A DNA stretch of 64,000 nt from Minisyncoccota bacterium (GTDB lineage: Bacteria > Patescibacteriota > Minisyncoccia > Moranbacterales > GCA-2747515): contig CALDDM010000002.1 of assembly GCA_937936355.1 (NCBI GenBank), positions 17,156 through 81,155 on the forward strand. Reading direction: 5' to 3'. This document shows positions 14,289-14,411 of the stretch, one piece after another. The notes below the pieces were generated by a model. It was not told the DNA's origin. It did not search any database and saw nothing but the letters and a program-made list of their open reading frames with translations. The first letter of the stretch is position 1. Each line of letters begins with the position of its first letter. The position numbers were made by a program, and so were the translations under genes.

Positions 14289-14411
14289 TTATCATACTAT
14301 TCCGATTCTCCTCACTAGTCACCCATTTTGATAATACAAAAACCGCTCTGTAGAGCGATTCTTGTAGTGTGATTATGATGAGCCAGACAGTACATGACGT
14401 TATAACTATTC
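14289..14411 (-). repeat. Inter-cassette conserved element copy R2
   Basis: Near-identical to R1, R4 and R6 and carries the cgctctgtagagcg palindrome. Confidence 0.8.

Follow-up and report, generated by a model that had tools for sequence, protein, structure and literature searches.

Integron arrays consist of tiny single-gene units that carry no recombinase of their own and are separated by imperfect inverted-repeat sites. In tRNA-seeded islands, such as the tycheposons of Prochlorococcus, units integrate beside a tRNA gene and older ones are pushed outward, with partial-tRNA repeats between them (bioRxiv 10.1101/2020.12.28.424599). Here we describe a locus whose layout resembles a cross of a tRNA-seeded additive island and an integron cassette array. 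It lies in a stretch of 64,000 nucleotides from contig CALDDM010000002.1 of a Minisyncoccota bacterium (hereafter the window), where copies of a short element with a terminator-like hairpin separate small genes that follow a tRNA-Gly(GCC) gene. We consider that the element is a composite recombination junction of a cassette array anchored on tRNA-Gly(GCC), in a chromosome of the Candidatus Pacebacteria type within the Candidate Phyla Radiation (CPR), and that it would also insulate each cassette with a terminator and a promoter. We put the probability of this at about 0.58.

In common with the tRNA-seeded islands, the array starts at the 3′ end of a full-length tRNA, has att-like repeats between units of variable content, becomes degraded in its distal units, and presents a contrast between occupied and unoccupied sites when genomes are compared. 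By contrast with those islands, and with integrative elements that encode their own integrase, its units are single genes of 0.4-0.9 kb without an integrase, each with a predicted terminator and promoter. Moreover, in this lineage a conserved 29-nt mimic takes the place of the partial-tRNA repeat. Two distant contigs have the same plan: the left arms of L012 are true tRNA 3′-end fragments, and L011 has a related arm.

The array occupies 3.9 kb between tRNA-Gly and a DUF2200 gene. It contains six genes, all on the minus strand, and its junctions are spaced by 416-905 nt. The GC content is 38%, compared with ~44% for the rest of the window. Reading outward from the tRNA the order is J0, P1, J1, C2, J2, C3, J3, C4, J4, P2, J5, P3 and DUF2200 (Table 1), J4 being the element that was described in the first-pass annotation. 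All the junctions are built alike: the left arm finishes with GCTCA, and after it come an A-rich stretch, a hairpin, a T-run, an inverted right arm and a promoter-like box. We call the sequence that follows the left arm the head. The left arm is either a tRNA end or a 29-nt arm (AGTTCTAACGTCATGTACTGTCTGGCTCA; AGTTCTAACGTCATNNACTNTCTGG for use in scans), and the right arm is an imperfect inverted copy of some left arm. Type A junctions join the 29-nt arm to a tRNA-type head, while in type B junctions the 29-nt arm is followed by another head, with a right arm that mirrors the 29-nt arm.

The terminator hairpin with its T-run (AATCGCTCTACAGAGCGGTTTTTG) occurs at four sites with no more than one mismatch, against none in 100 shuffles. 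The block that serves as right arm, GGTGAC..GAGGAGAAT (pattern GGTGACCAGTGAGGAGAATCGAAAT), occurs at three with no more than two mismatches and at none in shuffles. All copies are on the minus strand. The repeat noted in the first pass is thus real. Its copy count was incomplete, as a fourth copy of terminator and degraded block, without the 32-nt motif, directly follows tRNA-Gly. The 32-nt motif itself has five copies in the window (two mismatches or fewer). The order of motif and then element holds in the three full copies; the motif copies at 15736 and 14823 lead into different sequence.

Table 1. Features of the cassette array and associated elements. Positions are those of the window unless a contig is named.
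Feature	Position	Strand	Details
Xer-type tyrosine recombinase	21822-22838	+	Pfam Phage_integrase; best PDB matches XerA and XerD
tRNA operon Leu(gag)-Val(tac)-Phe(gaa)-Met(cat)-Gly(gcc)	16695-17568	-	ARAGORN and Rfam tRNA matches; array begins at the operon 3′ end
E element copies	16791-16899 and 17356-17483	-	after tRNA-Met and tRNA-Leu
tRNA-Gly(GCC)	16695-16767	-	3′ end GGTTCGATTCCGCTCACTTGCTCA is the left arm ('T') of the first junction, J0
J0, head (original element copy)	16602-16693	-	terminator 16652-16675; degraded block GATGATTAGTGAGGAGAGTCAAAAT 16615-16639; extended -10 TGATAAAAT 16602-16610
P1, paralogue of P2 and P3	15766-16583	-	membrane-anchor region frameshifted in A-run 16552-16583; open frame from ATG 16491
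J1, type B	15613-15736	-	arm 15708-15736; A-tract, hairpin and T-run 15661-15690; imperfect inverted partner CCTGGTGAGTGGACGATGTTAGAACT 15623-15648; extended -10 TGGTAGTAT 15613-15621
C2, barstar-like, 94 aa	15322-15606	-	Pfam Barstar, E = 5e-12
J2, type A, full copy	15172-15312	-	arm 15284-15312; terminator 15242-15265; block 15204-15228; TTGACA-17-TATTAT 15200-15172
C3, small secreted-looking protein	14893-15141	-	own terminator with 14-bp stem, 14846-14886
J3, type B	14724-14823	-	arm 14795-14823; hairpin AAAAACACT/AGTGTTTTT and T-run 14761-14790; inverted partner GGTGCGGGTCAGAACT 14736-14751; extended -10 TGATAAAAT 14726-14734
C4, membrane protein, 95 aa	14411-14698	-	from list of open reading frames; no Pfam match
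J4, left arm AGTTATAACGTCATGTACTGTCTGGCTCA, 29 nt	14379-14407	-	ends in GCTCA, like tRNA-Gly
J4, terminator-like part	14337-14378	-	TCATAATCACACTACAAG, then hairpin AATCGCTC-TACA-GAGCGGTT, then U-tract; hairpin/T-run pattern 14337-14360
J4, block GGTGACTAGTGAGGAGAATCGGAAT	14299-14323	-	pairs through its 5′ end GGTGACTAG with the arm/head junction sequence CTGG-C-TCATC
J4, extended -10-like box TGATAAAGT	14286-14294	-	24 nt upstream of the P2 start codon
P2, 207 aa	13639-14262	-	paralogue family, N-terminus MKNNIDSNFAIAILALVAAC
J5, type A, full copy	13443-13564	-	arm 13536-13564; terminator 13494-13517; block 13456-13480; extended -10 13443-13451
P3, 118 aa, last array gene	13061-13417	-	own terminator 12955-12982
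DUF2200 gene, distal to array	12464-12847	-	Pfam; 72% identical to the L015 DUF2200 protein
E element copies in other contigs	L002 1574-1697; L002 4215-4346; L006 29-156; L012 779-901

The origin of the element is indicated by the sequence that flanks tRNA-Gly. The tRNA ends ...CCGCTCACTTGCTCA, and the bases that follow (TCATAAATACACTACAAGAATCGCTC...) are those that stand after the motif in the three full copies. Across the joint the sequence reads ...CTTGCTCA|TCATAAATACAC and runs on into that of J4. Since the same sequence is found after tRNA-Gly and after the motif, the element located between cassettes appears to be a copy of the native 3′ flank of tRNA-Gly(GCC), comprising an A-tract, a GC-rich hairpin and a U-tract.

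Both arms can also be related to the tRNA. The block AGTGAGGAGAATCGAA of J2 matches the reverse complement of the tRNA-Gly end (TTCGATTCCGCTCACT) at 14 of 16 positions, and none of 2000 shuffles reaches that. In local alignment the J4 block matches at 12 of 14 positions, with no match to the reverse complement of its own 29-nt arm. The block is thus best read as the T-loop and 3′ acceptor strand of tRNA-Gly, copied in inverted orientation. The 29-nt arm and the tRNA-Gly end both start with GTTC, and nine of the last 12 bases are the same, with an insertion of 5 nt. The arm appears to be a diverged but conserved mimic of the tRNA-Gly 3′ end, with the same final GCTCA. The functional interpretation given in the first-pass annotation was half right; it missed both the tRNA-Gly origin of the element and the inverted tRNA-end block.

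In relatives where the tRNA-proximal copy is undegraded, the tRNA end and the block can be folded together. In L015 they enclose the terminator in two stems, of 8 bp and 6 bp, that are separated by an internal loop of 2 nt (z = -3.2; none of 200 shuffles folds as well). There is also support for a second, inner stem, between GGTGAC(C/T)AG, with which the block starts, and the sequence CTGG-C-TCATC of the arm/head junction. Standard pairs occupy 84% of its pair positions, and G-C, G-U and A-U are all seen at one of them. Were the site to fold, this stem would put the putative point of exchange within a duplex.

The chimeric nature of the junctions is seen when those of several genomes are compared. 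All four combinations of left arm and head exist. A tRNA end is joined to a tRNA-type head in the window, L006 and L015, and to an X-type head beside the tRNA in L002. The 29-nt arm is joined to a tRNA-type head in J4 and about nine other junctions, and to an X-type head at L015 11663 and in J1 of the window. The junctions swap the left arm against the head together with its right arm, and the boundary lies at or after GCTCA.

In L002 the order is tRNA-Gly, X-head, right arm GATTAGAACT, SUKH gene, 29-nt arm, tRNA-type head and P gene, and the two junctions have just (C/G)GCTCA in common. Such an order would result if a cassette (head, gene, arm) had inserted between ...GCTCA and the resident head, and the two junctions would then be attL- and attR-like. 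The same site is unoccupied in the window, L006 and L015, where the tRNA is followed by the tRNA-type head, the comparison being one between species. By this reasoning J4 fits best as an attR-like hybrid, composed of an imported arm and a resident or locally propagated tRNA-type head.

From these layouts we infer both recombination itself and its exact point of crossover. We propose that a cassette comprises a head, a gene and a left arm, and that site-specific recombination immediately 3′ of GCTCA would move it. This would take place between the site of the cassette itself and a second one, which could be that beside the tRNA or any of the other junctions. Such recombination would leave the tRNA intact and yield hybrid junctions, of which J4 would be one, with a mimic arm and a tRNA-type head. 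The built-in terminator would stop transcription of the tRNA operon or of the upstream cassette while the promoter would drive the next gene, insulating each cassette. The recombinase would act in trans.

The heads cluster by genome; those of the window are 85-91% identical to each other and 70-84% identical to copies elsewhere. The arms do not cluster in this way, and the arm of J5 in the window is 100% identical to that of L004. The clustering of the heads would also be expected if the element were a terminator-promoter module and nothing else, spread by tandem duplication and homologous recombination of the P1/P2/P3 family with its upstream region. Three of the four copies do stand ahead of paralogous genes that have a common 5′ untranslated region (UTR) and N-terminal region, and homologous recombination over about 90-150 bp gives the same products. 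However, J2 is placed ahead of an unrelated gene, the L002 insertion is bounded by just 5-6 common bases, type B junctions have an inverted partner of the arm, and the content of the arrays is wholly different between genomes. Furthermore the 29-nt arm is identical at all 29 positions in five assemblies (six sites), beside unrelated heads and genes. We regard an origin by duplication without site-specific recombination as unlikely.

In 185,579 species genomes the arm pattern was found only in two Candidatus Pacebacteria metagenome-assembled genomes (MAGs), and a scan of metagenomes added two more contigs, L005 and L006. The two MAGs and L006 hold an array behind the same five-tRNA cluster, while L005 has a single site and no tRNA. 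The cluster precedes the arrays of L002, L004/L015 and L006, and there as in the window the array abuts an intact tRNA 3′ end. Between the window and its relatives the arm is 93-100% identical, whereas housekeeping DNA beside the tRNAs is only ~67-75% identical. The cassette genes differ entirely; none is common to the window and L002, L015 or L006, except for the N-terminal region of the P family. In L015 the array extends for 12.7 kb from tRNA-Gly to the DUF2200 orthologue, and its distal junctions are degenerate. A possible degenerate arm in the window at 12894-12925 was dropped, as it looks like conserved sequence upstream of DUF2200.

The cargo of the arrays includes barstar, SUKH/SMI1-KNR4, HNH nucleases, an IS481-like transposase, glyoxalase, MBL-fold, methyltransferase and SDR proteins, and looks accessory or foreign. 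The closest homologues of C2 are 60-64% identical. Most are nameless, and the few that are named come from Bacteroidota (Chitinophaga, Flavobacterium) and a Lachnospiraceae MAG; there is no second Pacebacteria copy among them. The only exact match to C2 is the genome's own protein, and exact-protein look-ups of P2, C2 and C4 returned contigs of the same genome only. Viral contigs gave no match to the arm, block, terminator or tRNA-Gly end, and annotated plasmids and phages gave none to the element.

We note that a number of points weigh against movement of cassettes by recombination. No recombinase is linked to the array, and the only one seen, an Xer-type gene, is 4.3 kb beyond the tRNA cluster. 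We found no excised circle, no empty site within a population and no cassette that stands in two contexts in identical form. Where two tRNA-type heads exchange, homologous recombination over ~90 bp would be an equally good explanation. In the window the tRNA-proximal block is degraded and P1 is frameshifted, which is odd for an active entry site. There are four to six assemblies in the sample, most of which are MAGs. Assembly programs can misorder repeats of ~120 nt, so that the cassettes of the window could be in a wrong order, and the breaks of independent Logan contigs fall precisely at these repeats. Lastly, the activity of the terminator and the promoter is predicted from sequence.

The prediction of a terminator is based on several features. 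The J4 hairpin as RNA is AAUCGCUC-UACA-GAGCGGUU, followed by UUUGU; it matches the hairpin/T-run pattern exactly, and folds with a free energy of -18.2 kcal/mol (z = -7.3). Folding of the hairpins had been suggested as a check in the first pass; they are stable, with free energies of -16.8 to -18.6 kcal/mol (z = -5.3 to -7.3), that of J0 being -18.6 kcal/mol (z = -5.9). The hairpin starts 18 nt past the end of tRNA-Gly, and the arms start 4-75 nt past the stop codons of the cassettes, in the same orientation as the genes. A GC-rich stem-loop with a U-tract, in a downstream position on the same strand and with its structure kept, has all the sequence hallmarks of an intrinsic terminator.

The first-pass annotation had assigned this terminator to the preceding cassette gene. 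The orientation and features agree with that. However, some cassettes bring their own terminator upstream of the motif (C3, and in L006), so that the module is not simply the terminator of the preceding gene. The hairpin and U-tract look like the intrinsic terminator of the five-tRNA operon, in which, along the direction of transcription, an A-tract comes before and a U-tract after a GC-rich 8-bp hairpin. Unlike such a terminator, that of the array is set between long imperfect inverted repeats, formed by the tRNA 3′ end or its mimic and the inverted copy, and has been copied through the array. The presence of a terminator in the head makes sense, as anything inserted beside the tRNA must still end the tRNA operon.

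All 20 junction heads in four assemblies keep the A-tract, hairpin and U-tract despite different stems. There are at least five unrelated stems, such as CGCTC/GAGCG, GTCGCT/AGCGAC, AACACT/AGTGTT, CATCACT/AGTGATG and AGCCC/GGGCU. As MAFFT lost the register of the stems across head families, conservation of structure was judged sequence by sequence. Among 12 homologous copies of the tRNA type, each with eight stem pairs, standard pairs occupy 94.7% of the hairpin pair positions. There is little covariation, because this family is too conserved (fixed-column test).

The hairpin had been described in the first pass as a conserved perfect palindrome, CGCTCT-GT-AGAGCG. This 6+2+6 palindrome is present at 14344-14357, and is perfect in that copy only. 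The other two full copies have one mismatch, leaving a 4-bp core with a 6-nt loop, and the tRNA-proximal copy is CGCTC-AACA-GAGCG. It had also been suggested that the palindrome binds a protein or serves as a recombination site. A structure that is kept while the stems differ is better explained if a terminator was selected than if a single protein-binding palindrome was, and the chimeric junctions point to the arms and the GCTCA junction as the parts relevant to recombination instead.

A promoter-like element follows the block in every copy, as the first pass had proposed. It is either an extended -10 box (TGnTAAAAT or TGnTAAAGT) or, in J2, TTGACA-17-TATTAT, which agrees with the consensus at 11 of 12 positions. 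The extended -10 box of J4 is also found after the right arm in J0, J3 and J5. A portable terminator-promoter junction, as the element was first termed, is a fair functional label, and the module is indeed found ahead of unrelated genes.

Complementarity of the block to the 3′ half of tRNA-Gly (14 of 16 positions) might suggest a regulatory RNA, T-box-like or antisense, that would control the downstream gene by sensing tRNA-Gly or by pairing with it. However, the block lies between the terminator and the -10 box, so should be outside both transcripts. The same layout is found in J1 and J3 with arms that are complementary to no tRNA. Moreover, with Rfam only tRNAs exceeded the gathering thresholds in the whole window, and in the region 12800-17760 nothing credible was found for the junctions or the E element described below, even at E <= 5. 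A role as regulatory RNA is extremely unlikely. This position, past the terminator but ahead of the -10 box, makes it more likely that the block acts as DNA than as RNA.

The type B junctions invite comparison with the attC sites of integrons. In J1 the arm matches its inverted partner at 12 of 13 positions (reached by three of 2000 shuffles), and in DNA folds of both strands GATGTTAGAACTA pairs with TAGTTCTAACGTC to form an outer stem of 14 bp. The outer boxes of the type B junctions, TTCTAAC...GTTAGAA, are of the TAAC...GTTA type. They resemble the RYYYAAC...GTTRRRY of attC, differing from the attC consensus at one paired position, and have the integron orientation relative to the open reading frames (ORFs). 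The junctions could thus be true attC sites, either as a cluster of attC sites lacking an integron integrase (CALIN) or in a chromosomal integron with its IntI outside the window, the hairpin being the variable terminal structure. The array shares with these systems its unidirectional small single-gene cassettes, junctions of 85-125 nt that are imperfect inverted repeats, a recombinase that is not in the cassettes, and cargo of accessory and immunity type that is typical of integron cassettes.

A number of differences from integrons should be noted. No IntI was found in the 64 kb (ORFs were scanned up to about position 55,000), and the sole tyrosine recombinase scores 135 on the integron integrase model TIGR02249, against a cut-off of 265. 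The GTT R′ box is missing from the type A element, whose arms stay unpaired at the outer end. The exchange would occur at the inner end of the left arm rather than at the G|TT of R′. The left arm is conserved in sequence, unlike attC, and the hairpin has a U-tract. Each cassette appears to have its own promoter and terminator, where integron cassettes are promoterless, and the anchor is a tRNA gene rather than attI. We consider identity with attC sites very unlikely. Full-text searches of a collection of PubMed Central and bioRxiv papers for integron-like or tRNA-linked arrays in Patescibacteria or CPR found no description of such a locus.

The cassettes of the window, L002, L006 and L015 encode no integrase; L015 has just an IS481-like transposase and HNH genes. 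Because no recombinase is encoded by a cassette, movement, if real, needs an enzyme acting in trans. Among the ORFs scanned the only recombinase is the Xer-type gene at 21822-22838, the others being housekeeping genes. Its protein scores 233.6 on the NCBIfam model XerA_Arch (cut-off 220) and does not pass the cut-offs for bacterial XerC and XerD. Its identity as an integron integrase was rejected, given the score above. It may be the single Xer of the cell, and is a candidate for the trans-acting enzyme.

The cassettes could therefore be integrative elements that use the host Xer, in the style of integrative mobile elements exploiting Xer (IMEX) or pdif modules. The arm and its inverted partner would then be a dif-like substrate, either double-stranded or folded as in CTX phage. 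This concerns the identity of the enzyme and is compatible with a recombination junction as proposed above. Like pdif modules and other Xer-dependent elements, the array has small modules without a recombinase, short conserved sites and a host Xer-type enzyme available, and its arms can fold as a duplex with a small unpaired interruption. Unlike them, no 28-bp dif-like site, with its 11-6-11 palindrome, is evident in the 29-nt arm when read by eye. The array lies at a tRNA gene, neither at a replication terminus nor on a plasmid, and the cumulative GC skew keeps its sign there. In addition, housekeeping genes lie between the Xer-type gene and the tRNA cluster, and nothing ties the gene to the sites. 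Use of Xer at dif-like sites seems decidedly unlikely.

The ORF of 395 aa at 18449-19636 (+) was considered as a recombinase and rejected. It has no Pfam or NCBIfam match, and with its N-terminal hydrophobic segment the sequence looks like that of a membrane-anchored secreted protein. In L002 and L015, too, the ORF is conserved beside rplS and the tRNA cluster. An ORF of 246 aa that overlaps it on the opposite strand has no match either. Homing-type nucleases are encoded near the tRNA clusters of the relatives. There is a GIY-YIG ORF in the Met-Gly spacer of L002 at 3276-3530 (-), and in L015 two HNH ORFs (5560-6273, -) directly follow the first junction.

Taken more broadly, the locus may represent a new integron-like cassette system of Pacebacteria-like CPR. 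It would be anchored on a tRNA, with sites that mimic the tRNA end (arm, terminator and inverted arm), a recombinase in trans (Xer or other) and cassettes running from promoter to terminator, and the E elements would be its non-coding members without a terminator. We offer this as a tentative proposal, on balance doubtful. CPR genomes are tiny and few systems of mobile elements have been described in them. The stacking of foreign single-gene cassettes in a compact locus behind a tRNA would offer them a concrete way to gain genes. If the proposal were true, it would be a second, independent solution to the problem solved by integrons, in which cargo without a recombinase is captured and expressed yet does not disturb the essential operon beside it. 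With sites that are short, conserved and readily searched for, the idea is directly testable in metagenomes and in vitro.

The E element is a conserved, structured sequence of ~80-110 nt with two hairpins, GGGAAAC-GAAA-GTTTCCC and GCGAAACC-GTG-GGTTTCGC. There is some covariation in the second hairpin, and it has no match in Rfam. Each copy is preceded by an inverted T-loop copy of its tRNA, and followed by a direct duplicate of the last 18-19 nt of that tRNA. The duplicate tracks its own tRNA between genomes, as seen for tRNA-Leu in the window and L002. Inside the arrays of L002 and L012 an E element lies between the right arm and a pseudo tRNA-Gly end.

The P1, P2 and P3 proteins have a common N-terminus (MKNNIDSNFAIAILALVAAC) and 5′ UTR, with unrelated C-terminal parts, and belong to no Pfam family. 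Other arrays hold relatives of the family, and some homologues lie in ordinary chromosomal surroundings that have no junctions (L007-L010). The A-run that follows the start codon of P1 has eight extra bases (ATGAAAAAATAAAAAATC...) that put the anchor region out of frame. A pseudogene, a sequencing error or slippage are all possible. Two cassettes encode orphan proteins of immunity type, barstar (C2) in the window and SUKH-5/SMI1-KNR4 in L002 (2613-3008, -), with no toxin gene adjacent.

Elsewhere in the window a direct near-copy of the 3′ end of tRNA-Arg(cct), matching at 17 of 20 positions, is present at 53417-53436 (+) within an ORF of the UDG family (52998-53603). The tRNA gene itself (51591-51663) is 1.8 kb upstream, with rbfA and a gene of the DHH family between. 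Only about 0.004 matches as good as this would be expected by chance, so that coincidence is unlikely.

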